Shown here: positions 43,111 through 52,732 of the stretch, piece by piece
Layout of the letters: every line of letters begins with the position of its first letter
How positions within the stretch are numbered: the stretch's first letter is position 1
NCBI GenBank assembly: GCA_965226375.1
Contig: CBDDCX010000007.1
Coordinates: 192,001-256,000 of the forward strand
Source: Longimicrobiales bacterium
Lineage (GTDB): Bacteria; Gemmatimonadota; Gemmatimonadetes; Longimicrobiales; Gaopeijiaceae
Length of the DNA stretch: 64,000 nucleotides
Direction of reading: 5' to 3'
Made by a program: the position numbers and the translations under genes
The notes under the pieces: generated by a model
Database searches by the model: none
The model's input: the letters and a program-made list of their open reading frames with translations, nothing else
Told to the model about the DNA's origin: nothing

Positions 43111-44913
43111 CTACGTCATGAAGCCCACTCGCGGTAGCAGCTTGAAGACTCCCCAGCCGGACAACACCGCGACGATCATCCCGAAGGCGCCGGACGCCAG
43201 CTCTCCGTACAGCAGGAAGCCCGTTCCGAACAGCGCGCCGTACACCATGGTGCATCCCAAGAACCAGGAGAGCAGTCCGGCGGCGAGCTCCCCACCGCCC
43301 TGCGCATCGGTCCCCTCCACATCGGTGCCCTCCGAGGCCTTCAAATCGCCTATCACCGCATCCCACCCCCGGCCGAGGGGGCGGATGTCCCGGTAGAACG
43401 CCTGGAGCGTCTCCGTGTCCACCGGCGGCGTCATGAACGTCACGGCCAACCAGCTCACAGTGGTGATCGCAACACCCACCACCAGCGTGCTGGAAGGATC
43501 CCATGCCTCGAAGCCTAGGCGAGTGTGGAAGAAGGCGAAGTAGATGGCGACCAGGAACGAGATCACCATGGCGGAAATCTCACTCCAGGTGTTGACCCGC
43601 CACCAAAACCAGCGCAGGAGGAACACCAGACCAGTGCCCGCCCCGATCTGTAGCAGGATCTGGAACGCCTGCATGGCATTCTCGAGCTGTAGCGCTACGA
43701 TCGACGCGAGGATGATCAGCCCGACGGTTGAGAGGCGCGCCACCCGGACGTAGTCCTTCTCTTCCCGGTCCGGGGCCACGAAACGGCGGTAGACGTCGTC
43801 CACGATGTACGACGATCCCCAGTTCAGATGTGTGCTGATGGTCGACATGTATGCCGCGGCAAGCGATGCCACCACCAGGCCCAGAAGACCGTGAGGCAGA
43901 AAAACCAACATGGCGGGATAGGCCAGGTCGTGGCGGATGACGGATGGATCCACGTTGGGGAATGCGACCTGTAGGTCGGCGAGTGTCGGATAGACGATCA
44001 GCGAAGCAAGGGCCACCAGGATCCAGGGCCACGGACGCAGCGCGTAGTGCGCCAGATTGAACCAGAGCGTGGCCTGCATGGCGTGTTTCTCATCCTTGGC
44101 GGCTAGCATGCGTTGGGCGGCATAACCTCCACCGCCGGGCTCGGCGCCGGGGTACCAGGTACTCCACCACTGCACGGCGATGGGCACGATGAAGACGGCC
44201 GCCGCGGTGGACGGATCGGAGAAGTCCGGAAGGAAGGACAGCTTGCCCGAGACGGCCGGGTTGGAAATGAGGCCCGAGAGCCCCCCCACCTCGGGAAGTC
44301 GCAGCGCGTAGACGGCTGCGGCGACAGCACCGATCATCGAGATGGCGAACAGGAGCAGGTCCGTGACCAGGACGCCCCGCAGCCCCGAGGTGGCTGCGTA
44401 GAGGACCGTCGCGGTTCCGGCGATCAGCACCACCGTGTACTTGTCCGCCCCGAGGAGCACGCCACCGATCTTGATGGCCGCCAGGGTCACGGTAGCCATG
44501 ATCATGACGTTGAAGAACACCCCCAGATAGATGGCCCTGAACCCTCTGAGGAACGCGGCTGAGCGTCCGGAATAGCGGAGCTCGTAAAATCCGATGTCGG
44601 TAAGGACGCCGGACCGCCGCCACAGCTTGGCGTAGAAGAAGACCGTGCACATGCCGGTGATCAGGAAGGCCCACCAGATCCAGTTCTGGCTGACCCCCCC
44701 GGTACGCACGAGGTCTGTGACCAGATTGGGTGTGTCCGTCGAAAACGTCGTGGCCACCATGGAGGTCCCCAGAAGCCACCACGGCATGGACCGGCCCGCG
44801 AGGAAGTACTCTTCGGTGCCGCGCCCGGCCCGCCGGGCGAACGCCAGTCCCACGGAGAGGGCCGTCAAGCCGTATAGGCCCAGGACCCACCAGTCCAGTG
44901 TCGAAAGCTGCAT
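43111..44913 (-). CDS. sodium:solute symporter family protein
   Basis: EYFLAGRSMPWW, SMVATTFSTDTP, AQRMLAAKDE, AAYMSTISTHLNWG; many TMs. Confidence 0.92.
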   Translation of the reverse strand: MQLSTLDWWVLGLYGLTALSVGLAFARRAGRGTEEYFLAGRSMPWWLLGTSMVATTFSTDTPNLVTDLVRTGGVSQNWIWWAFLITGMCTVFFYAKLWRRSGVLTDIGFYELRYSGRSAAFLRGFRAIYLGVFFNVMIMATVTLAAIKIGGVLLGADKYTVVLIAGTATVLYAATSGLRGVLVTDLLLFAISMIGAVAAAVYALRLPEVGGLSGLISNPAVSGKLSFLPDFSDPSTAAAVFIVPIAVQWWSTWYPGAEPGGGGYAAQRMLAAKDEKHAMQATLWFNLAHYALRPWPWILVALASLIVYPTLADLQVAFPNVDPSVIRHDLAYPAMLVFLPHGLLGLVVASLAAAYMSTISTHLNWGSSYIVDDVYRRFVAPDREEKDYVRVARLSTVGLIILASIVALQLENAMQAFQILLQIGAGTGLVFLLRWFWWRVNTWSEISAMVISFLVAIYFAFFHTRLGFEAWDPSSTLVVGVAITTVSWLAVTFMTPPVDTETLQAFYRDIRPLGRGWDAVIGDLKASEGTDVEGTDAQGGGELAAGLLSWFLGCTMVYGALFGTGFLLYGELASGAFGMIVAVLSGWGVFKLLPRVGFMT

Positions 44914-45956
44914 CAGGGCTCCGTTCCCGAAGATTCGTTCTGGTTCGTCAACGCTCGGAACGCGCTCCGAAGATTCGCCGGATAGCGGCCCTCGGCAACG
45001 AGCGCCTCTATCCGCGACCCAACTTCCGATCGATCGTCCGGGAAGGTCACGCCGAAGCTCGGCACACCCGACTCCATGGCTCTCACCCGGGCATCACCGG
45101 TGGCGATGAGCCCGTTCAGCGCATCACTCAAGTAGAATTCAGGGGGGCCTTGGTCGGCCGGCTGTGCGAGAAGGGCGCGGAAGCTGCCCTCGAGAAGAGG
45201 GAAGATGTCGGGTGTGAATCCCCAGAGCCCCATGGAGGCCGGTTCGTCTCCGGAAAAAGCGAGCGATGTGCCGTCAGGAGTCTCGCCGACGATCCCGGAA
45301 GACGTCCGGTGGACTCGGAGCACTTCACGGATTTCCTGGACGTGCCCGCGGGAGTCTGCCTGGAGGATGGCCCTGGAGACCTGCGCCCCCGCTGACAGCG
45401 TATCCGTGAGACGATAGGTGACGGCCAGACACTCCCGTTCGCCACTCGCGCCCCGTGTGCCCAGTACGTTCCCCGAGCCAAGTCCGTTCAAGTACCGTGG
45501 AAGCACCTCCAGGGGGGCTCGCCCGTAGAAGTCGTCGGCATTCACGACGGCGAAGGGAACGTGGACGACGTCCCGAGCGCTCCACACGGCGTGGCCAGTC
45601 CCCCAGGGTTTGGTTCGGCTCGGGGGAAGTGCCACACCAGTAGGGAGGTCGTCCAGGCGCTGGCGAACAAAGCGACACGGCCACGAACCGGCAGTTAGTT
45701 CTTCGATGTGCCGTGACACGGCGTCTTCGATCTCACGACGCACCACCAAGACCGCGCCGCCATATCCGGACCGGGCGGCGTCGAAGAGGGTGTAGTCGAG
45801 GAGCGCTTCTCCCTGCGGGCCGACGGCGGCAAGTGGCTTCACCGCGCCATACCGAGTCGACATGCCCGCGGCTAACACGACGAGGGTAGGGGAGTGAGTC
45901 GGAGAGGGGTCGGGGTCTGGAGGCCCCACGTGCGGCGAGATCGAGGCGGGGCTCAC
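44913..45956 (-). CDS. sugar-phosphate nucleotidyltransferase family protein
   Basis: LVVLAAGMSTRYG..K, KPWGTGHAV, NADDFYG, SMGLWGF, EFYL, GVTF..D. Confidence 0.88.
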   Translation of the reverse strand: MSPASISPHVGPPDPDPSPTHSPTLVVLAAGMSTRYGAVKPLAAVGPQGEALLDYTLFDAARSGYGGAVLVVRREIEDAVSRHIEELTAGSWPCRFVRQRLDDLPTGVALPPSRTKPWGTGHAVWSARDVVHVPFAVVNADDFYGRAPLEVLPRYLNGLGSGNVLGTRGASGERECLAVTYRLTDTLSAGAQVSRAILQADSRGHVQEIREVLRVHRTSSGIVGETPDGTSLAFSGDEPASMGLWGFTPDIFPLLEGSFRALLAQPADQGPPEFYLSDALNGLIATGDARVRAMESGVPSFGVTFPDDRSEVGSRIEALVAEGRYPANLRSAFRALTNQNESSGTEP

Positions 45957-46034
45957 GCTTGGGGTCGGAGTGGGGTGGGTCTGAATGAGATCATGGATAG
46001 TCGTGGGAGACTACCCGCTGCTATGTCCGGGTGC

Positions 46035-46070
46035 AAAAAAAACTCGGCAGGGGGGCGAATCCCTGCCGAG
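46035..46070 (-). terminator. Rho-independent terminator
   Basis: Perfect 10-bp stem CTCGGCAGGG/CCCTGCCGAG, 8-nt loop, U8 tail on the minus strand. Confidence 0.9.
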
Positions 46071-46205
46071 CTTTATACGGCGTCGAGCATCATCACGTCA
46101 TCCACACATCACCCACCCGGGCTCTTCCGCCGTCCCCACATCATCATCATCATCGTCACAGTTCACCGTTTTTTTCGCCGGACTTCGTCTCCTCCGTCCG
46201 ACGTC
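46035..46205 (-). ncRNA. candidate sigma54-dependent small RNA or leader RNA
   Basis: Bounded by a -24/-12-like box and a strong terminator; purine-rich with 9 GATG and 7 GGA motifs; no long ORF on this strand. Confidence 0.5.
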
Positions 46206-46214
46206 CATCTCTAT

Positions 46215-46345
46215 GACAAGGTCCGTGCCAGAATCGAAACTTGTCTCTAACCGACTTACTAATAACGAGTTACATCGATTCGACGTGAAAGTGCGGAGGC
46301 ACCGGAGGTGTTCGAATACGGGACAGGTGTCCCGAAAGCTGGACG
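46215..46345 (-). promoter_or_regulatory. sigma54-type promoter with IHF-like site and tandem UAS-like palindromes
   Basis: TGGCACG-GACC-TTGT at 46230-46216; TAATAACGAGTTA at 46260-46272; TGTTCG-N5-GGGACA 46309-46325 and TGTCCC-N6-TGGACG 46328-46345. Confidence 0.55.
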
Positions 46346-46602: not shown

Positions 46603-46686
46603 GCCGGGATGGTGGAATTGGTAGACGCACCGGACTCAAAATCCGGCGGGCTTCGGCCCTTGGGGGTTCGAGTCCCCCTCCCGGCA
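46603..46686 (+). tRNA. tRNA-Leu(CAA)
   Basis: Acceptor GCCGGGA/TCCCGGC, anticodon arm CCGGA-CTCAAAA-TCCGG, long variable arm, GTTCGAG T-loop. CCA is not encoded. A -10 TAGAAT lies at 46589. Confidence 0.97.
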
Positions 46687-46746
46687 CTTAAGGTTTGAGC
46701 GGTTTTCCACATCGGAGGTCCCCGGTCTGGACATACCGATGGACAT

Positions 46747-46785
46747 ATAAGAAGGCCCCGACTCCCTGGTGGAGGTCGGGGCCTT
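46747..46785 (-). terminator. terminator downstream of integrase
   Basis: 11-bp stem AAGGCCCCGAC/GTCGGGGCCTT (46752-46785) followed by a short U-rich tail on the minus strand. Confidence 0.7.
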
Positions 46786-46804
46786 GCTCCGTTGATGGGT
46801 CGGG

Positions 46805-47980
46805 CTAGGCCAGTTCCTTCAGTTCCACCCGTTCGTCGGGCTCGTTCTCCACCAGGTGCAACAGGTGGCTCTTCATGAAGGTGTAGTACGACATCGTCGT
46901 CTGAATATCAGCGTGGCCCATGGCGCGCTGAACGATCGCCGGAGACTTACCCGCTTCGAGCCAGTTCGTGACCCGGCGGTGGCGTAGATCGTGGGGTACG
47001 AAGTTCTCGGGTAGCTTTGCCCGATGGCATGCGTTGCTCATCGCCGCGCGGAACGCCTTCGGGCGGGTGCCAGCCTCCGCGTTCTTCTTCCTCCGTTCGT
47101 GGTGGAAGACCCAGGGGGTACGTCCGATGCCCGGATACGTCGCGAAGCGGTAGCGGCTCGCGTGCTCAGTCAGGGCACGACGGAGTCGTCGCGTTATCGG
47201 TACCCATCGGGACTTCCCCGACTTCGTTCGGTGGTCGTGGCGACCCGATACGATCTCGATGGCTCCATGGGAGCCGAACTCCCAATCGATGTCACCCCAC
47301 TGAAGCCATAGGCCCTCGCTCTTCGAGCGCATCCCCGTTTCGGCGAGGACGGTCACGTAGGTCTTGAGCATCGGGTTCGCCTCGCACTCGGCCAGCAGGC
47401 GATCGAGTTCATCGTCGTTCAGGATCACGGGTTGCCGCTTGTCGTACTTTGGGGGCTTCGTGGCGCGCACCGGGTTGGCGTCCAGCAGACACCACTCCAC
47501 AGCCTTCTCGAAGACTAGGCCGAGTATGGCACGGTCCTTCTCTATCGTCCTCCCGCTGAGCGGTTGCGAGAGGCGTTCACCGCTGGGTCCATGCGTTCGG
47601 CGCCAAGCCATATAGCTGGCCACGTCACCTCGATCGAGGTCGTGGAGCTTGGGATCGCGCAGTTTGACTACGAAGAAGTGGGCGAGGGGTTTGAGCGAGT
47701 GCGGATAGCTCTCCGCAGAATTCGGGGCGAGCCCGGGCAACACATCGCTCTCGAAGCGTGTGATGAGTTCCGACATGGTCGTTACCCCCGGGAGCCCGCG
47801 CTTAACCCGTCCGTGGAGTTTCTTGAGCCTCTCGTGCTCCTTCTTCGCAAACGTCTCGACCTCGGATCTCTTCACGTCAGAGAAGTTGTAGGTCTCATAT
47901 TTGCCACCGATGCAGAGGCGCAGCCGGTACGAGCGGCCTCGCTTGTCGATTGATCCGGGGTGCGTCTTTCTGCGTGCCAT
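46805..47980 (-). CDS. tyrosine recombinase/integrase
   Basis: TGMR, K, HDLRH, MGH, TTMSYY catalytic set; N-terminal arm-binding-like GSIDKRGRSYRLR. Confidence 0.95.
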   Translation of the reverse strand: MARRKTHPGSIDKRGRSYRLRLCIGGKYETYNFSDVKRSEVETFAKKEHERLKKLHGRVKRGLPGVTTMSELITRFESDVLPGLAPNSAESYPHSLKPLAHFFVVKLRDPKLHDLDRGDVASYMAWRRTHGPSGERLSQPLSGRTIEKDRAILGLVFEKAVEWCLLDANPVRATKPPKYDKRQPVILNDDELDRLLAECEANPMLKTYVTVLAETGMRSKSEGLWLQWGDIDWEFGSHGAIEIVSGRHDHRTKSGKSRWVPITRRLRRALTEHASRYRFATYPGIGRTPWVFHHERRKKNAEAGTRPKAFRAAMSNACHRAKLPENFVPHDLRHRRVTNWLEAGKSPAIVQRAMGHADIQTTMSYYTFMKSHLLHLVENEPDERVELKELA

Positions 47981-47983
47981 TCG

Positions 47984-48649
47984 TCAGTCCTCCTTGGGTG
48001 CTTCCGTGTCTTCGGCCAGTTGTTTGCGCAGGGCGACTTTCAGGCCCTGGCACGATAGAACGACGAAGTCGTTTAGTTCGGGGTTGGGAATACGGGCTGG
48101 GGCCACTCCAAGCACCTTCAGTGATGCGTTCAGCGCCTTCCCGGCTGCGACGGAGTCTTTCAGCCAAGTGCCTTCGAGCTTCGTGGCCTCGGGAGCAGCA
48201 CTCCGTACTTGATGGCTTCTAATGGCCCTCGTGAGGTCCCTTGCGGCTTCCTTGGCGAAAAGGGATAGGCGGGTGTACTCGGGGAACCCTCGTCTGACAG
48301 CCTTGGACTCAGCGTCCTGAAGGGTCTTCAGCTGGGACCTCGTCTGAAGACCGGTCACTGCCGGGCTCGCATCCGTCGGGTCGTCAACCTCTCCCATCAA
48401 CCATTCATAGGGTACACCAAGCACGCTGGCCGCAGCGCGCATGACGGTGGGTCTGGGGTGCGGGGGCGCGCCCTCGCTCATATAAGACCGAAGGCCAGAA
48501 ACGCTCGTGCCCCGACGATCCTCACCTGGTTGAAGAGCCTTCGTAACCCTTTCTGCGAACGTCTCGTAGCTCCACGCTCGGCTCTTCATCTCGCTCTTCA
48601 GACGTTCAGCGTAGATCCGCACTTTTCTGCTCCGTTCGTCGCGAAACAC
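47984..48649 (-). CDS. XRE-like HTH repressor of the element
   Basis: AERLKSEM..WSYETFAERV..SGLRSY..AASVLGVPYEWLMGE; directly upstream of the integrase. Confidence 0.6.
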   Translation of the reverse strand: MFRDERSRKVRIYAERLKSEMKSRAWSYETFAERVTKALQPGEDRRGTSVSGLRSYMSEGAPPHPRPTVMRAAASVLGVPYEWLMGEVDDPTDASPAVTGLQTRSQLKTLQDAESKAVRRGFPEYTRLSLFAKEAARDLTRAIRSHQVRSAAPEATKLEGTWLKDSVAAGKALNASLKVLGVAPARIPNPELNDFVVLSCQGLKVALRKQLAEDTEAPKED

Positions 48650-48719
48650 CCGCAGAAAGAACAGCTGGCTGTTGTTGGGGGTGAACCGTACACTTTAGTG
48701 TGGAGATCATCACTTTTCT

Positions 48720-48905
48720 GTGGTAAACCAAGAATACGAGGAACTCGACGTGAGATCAAGACCACTTACCGTGGCCACCAGGGTGACCGAAGCGGAGCAC
48801 GAGGCGATCTCGGCCGCTGCTGAAGACAGAGGCACCTCGGTTGATGGTCTCATCAGAGAGTGCTTGATCCCGAAGGTCGCCCAGATCCTCAAGGGACCTC
48901 GATGA
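48720..48905 (+). CDS. small ribbon-helix-helix-like protein
   Basis: TVATRVTEAEHEAISAAAEDRGTSVDGLIR strand-helix-helix pattern; divergent from the repressor. Confidence 0.55.
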   Translation: MVNQEYEELDVRSRPLTVATRVTEAEHEAISAAAEDRGTSVDGLIRECLIPKVAQILKGPR

Positions 48906-48993
48906 CATCTCCCTCACGGATTCCTTCCGATTGCCACCATTCTTCCGTCTTGCTGCTCAGGAACTCCACGATGTAGTGGACGTTTTCTGACAT
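48889..48993 (-). CDS. 34-aa ORF, possibly a gene remnant
   Basis: MSENVHYIVEFLSSKTEEWWQSEGIREGDVIEVP with a strong GAGGGAGG RBS. Confidence 0.3.
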   Translation of the reverse strand: MSENVHYIVEFLSSKTEEWWQSEGIREGDVIEVP

Positions 48994-49222
48994 GATGCGC
49001 CTCCCTCACTTGACCCGAAGACGGCAGCAGGGCGAACGTACAGAGCGCGGCCCCCCGGGGTCGTTGCACTTGTGAGGCGTCGGTGTTTCTTTCGCGAGAG
49101 CCCGGCGCCTCGCTTATTGTGATGGTGTCATAATGCGGAGGCGTTGGAACACCGTCAAGGATTATCATGTACACCCATTCGGGAGTGTTGAACTGAAGAA
49201 TCCTGGCAGGGATGTACGTGCT

Positions 49223-49432
49223 ATGCTCGTTAAGCGGATTCTCACCGAAGCCGGACTGACCCGTGCTCAACTCGCTCGTGATACGGGCTTGAATGAGGCC
49301 ACCCTGTGGGCGTGGGTGACTGGTCGCAGGGTCCCCGAACCCGAATCCCTACAGAGGCTGGCCGCTGGTCTCGAGCGTCGCGGCGGTGAGCTATCCGAGT
49401 TGGCGAAGGAACTGCGGAAGGCTGCCGAATGA
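49223..49432 (+). CDS. small XRE/Cro-like HTH protein
   Basis: GLTRAQLARDTGLNEATLWAWVTGRRVP. Confidence 0.75.
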   Translation: MLVKRILTEAGLTRAQLARDTGLNEATLWAWVTGRRVPEPESLQRLAAGLERRGGELSELAKELRKAAE

Positions 49433-49549
49433 CCGGCAACCCGATCAAGTGCGCCAGATGCGGTGAGGTCATCGATCCCGCCGTGATTGACGAGACCTTC
49501 GAGTTTTGGACGGCGGACGGCAAACCTCGACACAGGGGTATTTGTCCGA

Positions 49550-50616
49550 ATGGGGTATTGCCTTAAGTCCACCGCCCACTACATGTTGTGGTCATGGCGG
49601 TTCCGGCTTCTCAGCTCCGTGGCGGCGTGGACTATCCCCGTACGCGGCTGGAGCTGGACGAGTTCTTCCCCGACGATGCGGCATGCCTGGAGTACGTGGA
49701 GGGTCTGCGCTGGCCGGAAGGGTTTGTGTGCGTGGGCTGTGGCGGGTTGGGAGAGGTCTGGCGAGCATCGCGGGGGCGTCTCGTCTGCCCACACTGTCGA
49801 AGGCAGACCTCGGTGCTGGCGGGAACCGTGTTCCACCGCACGCGCTCGCCCCTGCGTCTGTGGTTTCTCGCTGCCTGGGAGCTCACGAGCCAGAAATACG
49901 GAGCCAATGCTCTCGGGCTCCAGCGCGTGCTCGGACTGGGAAGCTACAAGACAGCGTGGGTCTGGCTCCACAAGCTCCGCCGGGCCATGGTCCGACCGGA
50001 TCGCGACCAGCTGAGCGGCGTTGTGCAAGTGGACGAGAGCTATGTCGGGGGCGTGGAGGCTGGAGTGCGGGGCCGCGAGACGATCAAGAAGGCCATCGTC
50101 GCGATCGCCGCCGAGGTCGACGGACGCAAGATCGGGAGAATACGGCTGCGTTGGGTGCCCGACCTCTCCGCTCCGGTTCTGCGAGGCTTCGTCAAGGATA
50201 GCATCGCACCGGCAAGCACGGTGCATACCGACGGATGGCCAAGCTATCAGGGACTCGCCAAACTGGGCTTTCGCCACACGGTCACGAACCTCTCGACCTC
50301 CGGCGATCCCGCTCACGTGCTCATGTCGGCCGTACATCGGGTGGCGTCTCTCCTCAAGCGCTGGGTCCTCGGAACCCTCCAAGGAGGGATCGCCCGCGAA
50401 CACCTCCCCTACTATCTGGACGAGTTCACCTTTCGCTTCAACCGACGCACATCCCGGGCTCGCGGCCTGTTGTTCTACCGCTTGCTTGAGCAGGCTGTTC
50501 AGTGTGCTCCCACGCCAGCTTCGGCCCTTTACCTCGGCACCGGACGTGGGAAACGGCCCGCAGAGCCCCGGTAACCACTATATCTTGGGGTCGGTGGACT
50601 TAAGGGAATACCCCCT
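49550..50616 (+). mobile_element. IS1595-family element, copy 2, 1067 bp
   Basis: Same ends and length as copy 1; 8-bp TSD TTGTCCGA at 49542-49549 and 50617-50624. Confidence 0.92.
49588..50574 (+). CDS. IS1595 family transposase
   Basis: 328-aa protein identical to 14681-15667. Confidence 0.95.
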   Translation: MVMAVPASQLRGGVDYPRTRLELDEFFPDDAACLEYVEGLRWPEGFVCVGCGGLGEVWRASRGRLVCPHCRRQTSVLAGTVFHRTRSPLRLWFLAAWELTSQKYGANALGLQRVLGLGSYKTAWVWLHKLRRAMVRPDRDQLSGVVQVDESYVGGVEAGVRGRETIKKAIVAIAAEVDGRKIGRIRLRWVPDLSAPVLRGFVKDSIAPASTVHTDGWPSYQGLAKLGFRHTVTNLSTSGDPAHVLMSAVHRVASLLKRWVLGTLQGGIAREHLPYYLDEFTFRFNRRTSRARGLLFYRLLEQAVQCAPTPASALYLGTGRGKRPAEPR

Positions 50617-50750
50617 TTGTCCGAAGTTCAAGAATACCGAATAAACCCCGCAGACGCTTAGAACGTGAATACAAGCCTCTGAGACGGCTCCTGCTTGCGC
50701 TTCCCGACCTGCGGATAGGATGTTGAGCACCGCCTGATCTCGGAGTGCCC

Positions 50751-51865
50751 ATGTCCGATCCCATCGTCCGCCTGAACGCCGCCCTCGAGGGCCGCTACGC
50801 CATAGAGCGTGAGCTTGGCGAAGGCGGCATGGCCACCGTCTATCTGGCGGACGACCTGAAGCACGAACGGAAGGTCGCGCTGAAGGTCCTGAAGCCTGAA
50901 CTAGCTGCGGTTGTCGGCGCCGAACGCTTCCTCGCCGAGATCAAAACCACCGCAAACCTCCAGCACCCGCACATCCTGCCTCTCTTCGATTCCGGCGAAG
51001 CCGATTCCTTCCTCTTCTACGTGATGCCCCACGTCCACGGGGAATCACTCAGGGAGCGCATCGACCGCGAGAAGCAGCTCGGTGTCGAGGACTCGGTCGC
51101 CATCACGCGGAAGGTGGCCGACGCACTGGACTACGCGCACGGGAACGGCGTCGTCCATCGCGACATCAAGCCCGGCAATATCCTGCTCAGTGAGCGGGGA
51201 GAGCCGCTCGTTGCGGACTTCGGGATTGCTCTGGCCGTGGCACAGGCGGGTGCGGGGCGCATCACGGAGACGGGATTGAGCCTCGGCACTCCGCACTACA
51301 TGAGCCCGGAGCAGGCGACGGGCGACCGGGACGTGGACCCCCGCTCGGATGTCTACGCGCTCGGCTGTGTGCTCTACGAGATGCTCGCCGGGCAGCCACC
51401 CTTCTCTGCCACCACTGCCCAAGCGGTGCTGGTCAAGATTCTCACGGCGGATGCACCGTCGATCACGAGTGAGCGGAGGACCGTGCCTCCAAACGTCGGT
51501 GCGGCCCTGGTGAGGTCACTTGAAAAGCTGCCCGCCGACCGCTTCACGAGCGCGGCTGACTTCGCGGCTGCGCTCGCGGACCAGAGCTTCACGTATGAGG
51601 CGCGGGCTCGGACTTCCGTAGCGGCCTTTACCCCGGAGCCGGTAACCACGCCCGCCATAGTGCCTGGCCCTTGGAATCGGCTGACGGTCGCCTTGGGACG
51701 ACCGCTGTCCTCCTTGCAGGGTTGGCCGCCTGGGGCTGGCTCCGGCCATCTCCCGAGCCCGGCGTCACTACGCGGGCGTCAGTGACAGGTGTCGGCATAA
51801 CTGCCTCGGGTGGTGGCTGGAGGCTCGCGATCTCGCCGGATGGCCGTTCGATTCTGAAAGCGTGA
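50751..51865 (+). pseudogene. Hanks-type Ser/Thr kinase with TM helix and truncated PD40 propeller
   Basis: GEGGMATV, VALK, HRDIKPGN, DFG, GTPHYMSPE, SDVYALG; frameshift at ~51695; ends after the first AISPDG repeat. Confidence 0.88.
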
Positions 51866-51929
51866 GTTGGGTGAAGGCGGCATGGCTACGGTTTATCTCG
51901 CCAAGGACTTGAAGCACAATCGCGAGGTG
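51858..51929 (+). pseudogene. 24-codon fragment of a second Ser/Thr kinase (subdomain I)
   Basis: KRELGEGGMATVYLAKDLKHNREV; differs from the first kinase mostly at synonymous positions. Confidence 0.85.
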
Positions 51930-51931
51930 CG

Positions 51932-52420
51932 GATGGGTACTTGCGGCGGTTCGCCGACCTTGAGATTGGGCTCCCCAAGCCCAACTCTCATGAGTTCTGT
52001 CTTAACCTTCTCAGGAATCTGAAGACCGCCGGGTTGTCGAGTACCGCTACCGAGACACTTGCCAGGTTCGCTGATCTGTTCGAGTTGCCGCTACGCACCC
52101 AGGAGCGATGTTTCACGGAGATGAGTGCTGTGGCAGCGACCATGCCAGGAGTAGCGGCAGAAGGAGCACTCGCCTTCATGTGCGCCTTCCGGGCTGCCGA
52201 TGTTGAGCAGTACCACGCTTACCGAACCGAAAGATCCAGCCTGAAGACTAGCCTGAGTCAGATGGGGGTGAAGCGGCAGCGTCGTGACGATGAGACGGTC
52301 TACTTTAAACAGACCAGTGAGATCCTAGGCGATACGATGACGGCACTGAACCAGAGGATCGGTTGGACAAGCAGGTTGATGGAGCGCCTTGAGGTGGTGG
52401 CGAACCTTCTTGATGAATGA
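51932..52420 (+). pseudogene. C-terminal remnant of a KAP-family P-loop NTPase-like protein
   Basis: DGYLRRFADLEIGLPKP and LPLRTQER resemble the distal KAP motifs; no Walker A/B. Confidence 0.55.
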
Positions 52421-52732
52421 CGAGAGGCGGAACAACTTCAGCCCGATTAACGTGCTCGACTACAACGGGCTCCGGGTGGTGTGGTCAGCGGTTGAAGGAC
52501 AGGACTGACTTTGGTCAGTTCTTGGTCAATTCCACTTGAAAAAGATGGTAGAATGGTGTAGACGTAGGAGACGGGCAGATCGGCACCTTGCCCTTCGGTT
52601 GCAACAGAATACGGTCGCCCGGCAAAGGCTTGAAAAGGCTACCCGTCAGACTCAAAATCCGGCGGGCTTCGGCCCTTGGGGGTTCGAGTCCCCCTCCCGG
52701 CACTGGTCGCAAGTGCTGCTCCTGAGGAGATC

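Follow-up and report, generated by a model that had tools for sequence, protein, structure and literature searches.

A predicted sigma54-driven small RNA family in Longimicrobiales shares an enhancer and loop type with a tolC exporter operon

CrcZ and CrcY are protein sponges with repeated single-stranded words, the Pxr RNA of Myxococcus is under sigma54 and two-component control, and GcvB of enterobacteria has a G/U-rich single-stranded region and pairs with mRNAs. CrcZ and CrcY of the Pseudomonadaceae have an RpoN promoter that is activated by a two-component enhancer-binding protein (PMC6292655), and CsrB, CsrC, RsmY and RsmZ carry a short word several times over, in varying number, with which they titrate a protein off mRNA leaders (PMC5207318). 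The sigma54 promoter of GlmY has upstream activator sites, a requirement for IHF and a two-component activator (PMC3045617), and the RNA is a decoy for RapZ that resembles the RNA it protects (PMC4152352, PMC7073468). No small RNA was described for the order Longimicrobiales in the literature that we searched by taxon or operon, and the main text of PMC11109978 does not name the taxon. The RNA, leader and regulon reported below were not described in the literature searched, which takes in few subscription journals and no supplements of RNA-motif surveys.

We analysed a 64-kb stretch (the window) of a genome from the order Longimicrobiales, in the Gemmatimonadota, here called G000; g1, g75, g28, g15 and g33 denote genera and L-numbers denote loci. 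All elements of the cassette are on the minus strand, as read from the window sequence. Two adjacent imperfect palindromes form an enhancer (46345-46329 and 46325-46309) that sits 105 to 141 bp upstream of the predicted +1, followed by an IHF-like bending site with 2 mismatches to the consensus (46260-46272, read on the plus strand) and a sigma54 −24/−12 promoter, TGGCACG-N4-TTGT, with TTGT at −12 (46230-46216). The standard −25/−24 spacing from the sigma54 box places the +1 at about 46204, from which a predicted small RNA of 170 nt runs to 46035. It contains nine GATG and seven GGA words, (GAT)5 and an A7 run, and it ends in an intrinsic terminator (46035..46070) with a perfect 10-bp stem (46070-46043) and a U8 tract. 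These parts are as a preliminary description of the locus had read them, and its proposal of an undescribed sigma54- and enhancer-driven RNA gene agrees with what comparison indicates, a predicted non-coding, terminator-ended gene that is conserved in relatives.

The predicted RNA folds more stably than its shuffles (z = −2.72; 2 of 200 shuffles as stable). A 5' hairpin with a purine-rich loop (P1, 46176..46203) is predicted in both the MFE and the centroid structure. A closing stem (P2, 46077..46169; arms 46169-46164 and 46082-46077), predicted in G000 and G083, surrounds a G/U-rich region. The region begins with a first single-stranded stretch carrying (GAU)5 and a G run (46125..46163), which is mostly unpaired in the centroid, and continues with a second G/U-rich loop (46118-46089) closed by a short predicted stem (P3, 46085..46124; arms 46124-46121 and 46088-46085).

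Downstream on the same strand and outside the RNA is a nucleotidyltransferase-like gene (44913..45956) with a weak Pfam NTP_transf_3 match below the cut-off. Its putative sigma70-type promoter (46008..46036; −35, 17 bp, −10), read from the sequence, begins at the end of the U-tract and has identical spacing in G001, G002, G083 and G152. The divergent neighbour is tRNA-Leu(CAA) (46603..46687, plus strand; ARAGORN and Rfam), which is also the insertion site of an island of about 6 kb (46688-52704) with an integrase (46805-47980), a helix-turn-helix gene, a transposase-like frame and a Ser/Thr kinase. The last 48 bp of the tRNA gene are repeated at 52657-52704.

We asked how far these elements exceed chance in the 4.2-Mb genome. 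(GAT)5 occurs once in it, and none of 49,724 non-overlapping 170-nt genome windows holds nine GATG words. At least seven GGA words are found in 4,314 of these windows (8.7%), so the GGA count of the RNA carries no meaning. Of the two repeated words in the preliminary description, GATG thus has a count unique in the genome and GGA is ordinary; GAUG as such is not conserved, as the G001 copy has only three GATG words. The sigma54 box by itself is at chance level (8 seen, 6.4 expected in the genome), and the IHF word taken alone does not exceed chance either, a site with 2 mismatches being expected about 0.14 times per 80 nt. The promoter elements become convincing because they are conserved with constant spacing: the −24/−12 promoter is intact in 11 of 12 copies, and an IHF-like word lies 43 bp upstream of the −24 box in 8 of 11 carrier genomes. 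As anticipated, Rfam returned no match for the RNA at E ≤ 10, and relaxed thresholds applied to the window and in 16 locus scans gave only tRNA, rRNA, an intron piece and chance matches. Three other candidate readings were rejected: the tmRNA of the genome is at C7:550055-550409, with none in the window (ARAGORN); pairing with the 3' tail of 16S rRNA is no better than in shuffles (in two comparisons, 177 and 199 of 200 shuffles equalled or exceeded it); and G-quadruplex scores fall below those of shuffles (300 of 300).

Homologues were sought by DNA similarity, synteny, pattern and profile. We searched 230 of the 314 genomes of the family with profile R2, whose model takes in the promoter, and all 314 with a strict promoter pattern. 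The cassette was found in 11 genomes of five genera (G000, G001, G002, G083, G152, G029, G034, G111, G163, G140 and G016) and on one metagenome contig (L121). A first metagenome pattern scan gave 0 matches, a second gave 15 stretches with one homologue, and a pattern scan of the genome collection gave 31 stretches with three homologues. The 12 homologous RNAs are 97 to 175 nt long with a mean column identity of 56% across the five genera, and their bodies are 45% G and 20% A. The neighbouring tRNA-Leu and nucleotidyltransferase-like gene accompany the cassette in g1, g75 and g28, and other genes flank it in g15 and g33; the divergent position relative to tRNA-Leu in the preliminary description thus holds for the nearest relatives only.

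All 10 terminator pairs are kept in the nine copies that were parsed by script (three were unparsed), with two-sided changes at 2 positions between clades. The P1 stem is identical in G083 and G152, has a G-U variant in G001 and is replaced by a different 10-bp hairpin in G029. P2 and P3 are best regarded as predicted stems, because the five closest copies, aligned and judged by eye, have only one-sided changes; in P2 these are G-U changes, with no two-sided change. The repeat-unit number of the first G/U-rich stretch differs between genomes, and the strain in DNA run X14 has two extra units. The second loop is longer by 10 nt in G001 and by 17 nt in G152. The A7 run is not conserved among copies, and the g15 copies contain three GGA words. 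Enhancer-like repeats, IHF spacing, promoter, loops and terminator pairing persist while the cassette changes neighbours. On this comparison the locus is very probably a real RNA gene with a predicted transcript. Three RNA runs (X1, X5 and X15) are silent on its expression, because their cover falls only on the tRNA of other organisms and the source organism was not demonstrated in them.

Two readings place the function of the transcript elsewhere. It could be a short mRNA that encodes an acidic peptide, some 36 residues long and starting at an ATG at 46208, in which the GAT repeats are Asp codons. One frame is similarly Asp-rich in G000, G001, G083 and G029, with several third-position changes (by eye), and the A7 run was unchanged in an independent DNA run, which counts against the peptide. 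The ATG lies 4 nt upstream of the predicted +1; in G083 and G152 its place is taken by ACG or GCG, and the g15 and g33 copies have no such frame (g33 by eye). Distances between conserved anchors of 64, 58, 51, 50 and 56 nt and of 36, 46, 36 and 53 nt mean that the frame is not kept between copies. We consider a peptide very improbable. Alternatively, the transcript could be a cis-acting leader or attenuator of the nucleotidyltransferase-like gene, which lies on the same strand and is the same neighbour in g1, g75 and g28; an alternative fold of the G001 copy pairs the G-rich stretch with the 3' arm of the terminator. We give this arrangement only a very slight chance, given the other downstream genes in g15 and g33, the conserved putative sigma70-type promoter that the downstream gene has of its own after the U-tract, and the presence of a sigma54 box within 1.5 kb upstream in only three (G000, G001 and G083) of 30 loci of that gene.

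A −12 box of the TTGT type is also found, at an identical distance from the IHF site, above protein genes in the unrelated metagenome contigs L110, L120, L117, L108 and L116, and is therefore a real promoter variant rather than decay; two of these genes are small heat-shock-like by eye. Further sigma54-like elements were seen in the same material. At G000:C8:431535, on the minus strand, a sigma54-like box is followed by a direct duplication of about 120 bp above a protease-like gene. At L240 (G244), L247 (G090), L250 (G289), L163 (G325) and L252 (G096), sigma54 promoters that keep this IHF spacing and have related half-sites in their enhancers stand above a gene for a secreted Tyr/Gly/Trp-rich protein.

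Profile R2 also matched a second position in the window's genome, G000:C7:367141, and corresponding sites in other genomes. The window enhancer is of the same type as this one (G000:C7:367140), which belongs to an operon at G000:C7:367337-374968 encoding TolC, a membrane-fusion protein (MFP), two MacB/LolD-like ATPases, a sigma54 response regulator (G000:C7:372123-373583) and a histidine kinase, with no permease gene. The gene order is conserved in all six regions that reach that far, one of which has a single ATPase. For an enhancer weight matrix we used 26 tolC promoters, all from other genomes, and kept small-RNA promoters out of the set. In G000 it ranked the operon enhancer first (32.6 bits) and the window enhancer second (22.4 bits); the margin over the next genomic site (20.9) is small. 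Both enhancers are 115 bp upstream of the −24 box. Among the other RNA promoters the matrix scored 26.8 in G001, 20.4 in G152 and 10.5 to 17.9 in the g15 copies, and poorly in G029 and G034. A third enhancer copy at G000:C8:1678421-1678550, with a TTCC-type sigma54 box, reads antisense into the end of a truncated ADOP gene and is probably a rearrangement relic.

An orthologue of the operon's regulator was found in 32 of the 35 genomes that show the enhancer or the RNA cassette: in 9 of the 11 other genomes with a cassette or relic, and in 23 of 24 with the operon enhancer only. None of 14 family genomes with a TolC paralogue only has it. We read this co-occurrence as consistency rather than as a statistical test, because the genomes are hand-picked and related. 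A TolC orthologue was found in all seven further carriers examined; across the phylum the TolC search returned mostly a paralogue, with no sigma54 box in any of 29 loci read. Together with the shared enhancer type, these patterns make the operon's regulator quite probably the protein that binds the window enhancer. G000 encodes rpoN, five full sigma54-activator domains among nine matches, and an IHF-like protein whose score is below the curated cut-offs. It has 67 ADOP matches, 34 of them above the cut-off, and 48 PadR matches, and the operon is likely the common core for the many orphan ADOP permeases, a family rarely named in the literature searched. Many ADOP genes of G000 are split into two neighbouring partial matches, which hints at frameshifts caused by decay or by errors of assembly.

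Between the sigma54 box and tolC (G000:C7:367140-367400; L151, L230) we identified a hairpin that could be aligned from 25 genomes (alignment A5). Its promoter has an unusual −12 box, TTCC or TTTC, and the leader has no Rfam match; leader and promoter together are an undescribed cis-element. RNAalifold gave an 8-pair core, of which 4 pairs have two-sided changes, and 7 of the 12 pairs of the leader stem have them. An 18-pair structure has 42 two-sided cells against 21.5 in shuffles (reached in 0 of 500) and 7 to 30 in slid controls, a test that leans towards this structure because it was derived from the same related sequences; its outer helix is 87% paired and its inner helix 58%. A run of four or more U follows the leader stem in 9 of 25 leaders, and hairpin and U-run together may form an attenuator. 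A single leader hairpin is found in G000 at E ≤ 0.5. The leader model gave no match in 110 other genomes of the class, with a limited sensitivity, as it also missed the known variant in G227. This variant and one in G189 (L165, L167) have the inner hairpin on the 5' side and stand above a lone ABC ATPase gene instead of tolC. At L156 (G312:C128) a further enhancer, sigma54 box and hairpin precede a gene that is AraC-like by eye, and the hairpin loop is nearly identical to the first loop of the window's RNA. The tolC orthologues at L207 (G034) and L209 (G130) have no detectable sigma54 box or leader; the one in G034 keeps the enhancer, and G130 is also without the regulator by this query.

The loops of the leaders resemble those of the RNAs. 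Leader loops are 58% G and 9% C, and G(A/G)UG words occur 58 times against 25 expected in the leader loops and 79 against 29 in the RNAs. What is conserved is a C-poor, G/U-rich loop carrying G(A/G)UG words, and not GAUG itself. We trained a second-order Markov model on the leader loops of the other genomes alone and ranked all 26-nt windows of G000 with it; the leader of G000 came 12th and the second loop of the RNA 25th. All 12 RNAs hold a segment that at most 10 of 3,000 random genomic stretches match or beat, and of 500 composition-matched shuffles 498 score below the window's RNA. Over the 12 RNAs, 2 to 76 of 500 shuffles of equal composition reach the score (19 to 76 in seven of them), so the likeness is partly one of composition. 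A covariance model of the leaders alone did not find the window's RNA and found two g15 copies weakly (18.1 bits, E 0.055; 16.2 bits, E 0.14). Descent of the RNA from the leader is for this reason suggested only. Comparison of genomes establishes the shared enhancer, the conserved non-coding cassette and a structured leader with similar loops.

Our main reading, to which we give a probability of roughly 0.45, is that the RNA is a co-induced decoy for a candidate leader-binding protein in the regulon of the sigma54 regulator of the tolC operon; protein titration is the likeliest mechanism. In a first, well-supported step, the kinase would activate the regulator, which would bind the enhancer common to operon and RNA gene and, helped by IHF bending, start both sigma54 promoters. 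The second step is supported by comparison: the operon mRNA begins with the conserved hairpin, whose exposed loop is C-poor, G/U-rich and carries G(A/G)UG words, and the small RNA exposes two such stretches in which the word is more frequent. A single-strand RNA-binding protein, neither CsrA nor Hfq, may sit on the leader loop and repress the operon by a translation block, termination or decay, and the small RNA may titrate this repressor, so that exporter core and regulator would be turned on abruptly above a threshold of the signal. The −12 TTGT of the RNA promoter is nearer to the consensus than the TTCC or TTTC of the operon, and the decoy could therefore accumulate first. Co-induction, binding of a protein to the loops and a sharpening of induction by titration are what we infer from the comparison. 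Against the decoy, the one leader hairpin of G000 is a small target set, most leader-bearing genomes lack the RNA, some RNA copies are decaying, and the enhancer matches in G034 and G029 are weak.

The same loops could instead pair with C/A-rich stretches of mRNAs controlled by the same sigma54 regulator, without Hfq; in a variant, the leader hairpin may also be set free and act on these mRNAs as a second RNA. In favour of pairing are the accessible G/U-rich loops and the strength of the terminator, and the U-runs after the stem in part of the leaders could free the leader hairpin. No antisense match in the genome is longer than 15 nt (E ≥ 0.5), duplex energies on about 3,660 roughly called gene starts are no stronger than those of shuffled loops or of coding regions, 45 padR start regions are no better than average, and no complementary word is common to the padR leaders (by eye). 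The loop sequence also drifts between clades; this drift and the variable repeat number would fit protein binding better than a pairing seed. We regard base pairing as unlikely, though it keeps an appreciable share of our belief.

The distribution of the RNA raises another reading. It was found in 11 of the 230 family genomes searched with the profile, whereas the leader is present in more than 25, and three of the six g1/g75 copies are damaged: G002 has lost the enhancer and the −24 box, in G083 the enhancer is gone, and G127 retains neither promoter nor RNA body. The cassette could thus be a duplicated promoter and leader with an added terminator, transcribed with little or no function, a view to which the patchy distribution, the damaged copies and the enhancer kept at the G034 tolC lend weight. 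The retention of enhancer-like repeats, IHF spacing, promoter, loops and terminator across five genera, the two-sided changes in the terminator and the survival of the cassette through relocation make it improbable.

We also observed a second, undescribed sigma54-driven RNA family of about 170 to 200 nt, which has tandem repeats in its enhancer, two C-rich loops and a terminator, at L248 (G023), L249 (G278), L251 (G309), L268 (G139), L272 (G018), L273 (G283) and L274 (G134). It stands directly above a different response regulator gene in G309, G139, G283 and G134 and gave no Rfam match when three of the loci were scanned; by its appearance it may pair with Shine-Dalgarno sequences. Its occurrence in the same family of genomes raises the idea that the window's RNA is a sponge for a small RNA with C-rich loops. 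The C-rich RNA was not found in G000 (best nhmmer E 0.18), had no real match in any of the 11 carriers, and its loops pair with the leader loops or the window's RNA no better than shuffles; its neighbouring regulator has no close match in G000 (39 to 42% identity over most of its length). A sponge of this kind is accordingly a very long shot.

Returning to the decoy, we searched for its possible protein partner. No match to CsrA (PF02599) was found in G000, which is 90% complete, or in five of five carriers, with the positive control matched in 3 of 14 genomes; likewise no Hfq match (PF17209) was found in G000 or five of five carriers, with the control matched in 5 of 14. A single miss is weak, because the genomes are 90 to 95% complete; a miss in six of six for each protein is telling. 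An RRM protein was rejected as the partner, with no match in G000, and four cold-shock proteins are encoded there. Of the proteins that the preliminary description had suggested looking for, rpoN and enhancer-binding proteins were found and csrA and hfq were not. A wider joint reading, which we hold as tentative and rather doubtful, is that an undescribed protein reads G(A/G)UG-rich loops in Longimicrobiales and gates the single TolC/MFP/ATPase core of dozens of orphan ADOP permeases, and that in several lineages a copied operon promoter and leader became a free decoy RNA. If true, this would add a third sponge system to Csr and Crc/Hfq and make the birth of a small RNA from a leader visible. 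Loop, leader and regulator offer a bait, a reporter and an inducer in the search for an RNA-binding protein in bacteria that gave no csrA or hfq match, and a handle on how the exporter core of a genome rich in ADOP and PadR matches is switched on.

Measured against the described systems, the comparisons indicate a real small-RNA family that is new and of a known general kind, with a proposed mechanism. What appears new, judging from the genomes compared, is an RNA family linked to a specific two-component system and to a specific mRNA leader of an exporter operon. None of the RNAs considered here is matched through Rfam. As in CrcZ and CrcY, a small RNA would arise from an enhancer-activated sigma54 promoter; unlike theirs, its repeats are G/U-rich rather than A-rich, with one A7 run that is not conserved, hfq was not found, and regulator and regulon are different. 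It may resemble CsrB, CsrC, RsmY and RsmZ as a proposed sponge with a variable number of word copies, but csrA was not found, GGA is not enriched and there is no series of small GGA-capped hairpins. The analogies with CsrB/RsmZ and CrcZ that the preliminary description drew therefore fail at the protein partner, since neither csrA nor hfq was found and seven GGA words are nothing unusual. GcvB differs in its Hfq-dependent pairing with mRNAs, as hfq was not found here and no target stands out. Like Pxr, the window's RNA is a predicted stem-loop small RNA of a little-studied group, with a different sequence and context. GlmY shares its promoter architecture, and unlike in the GlmY/GlmZ pair, the RNA mimicked here would be the leader of an mRNA that belongs to the same regulon.
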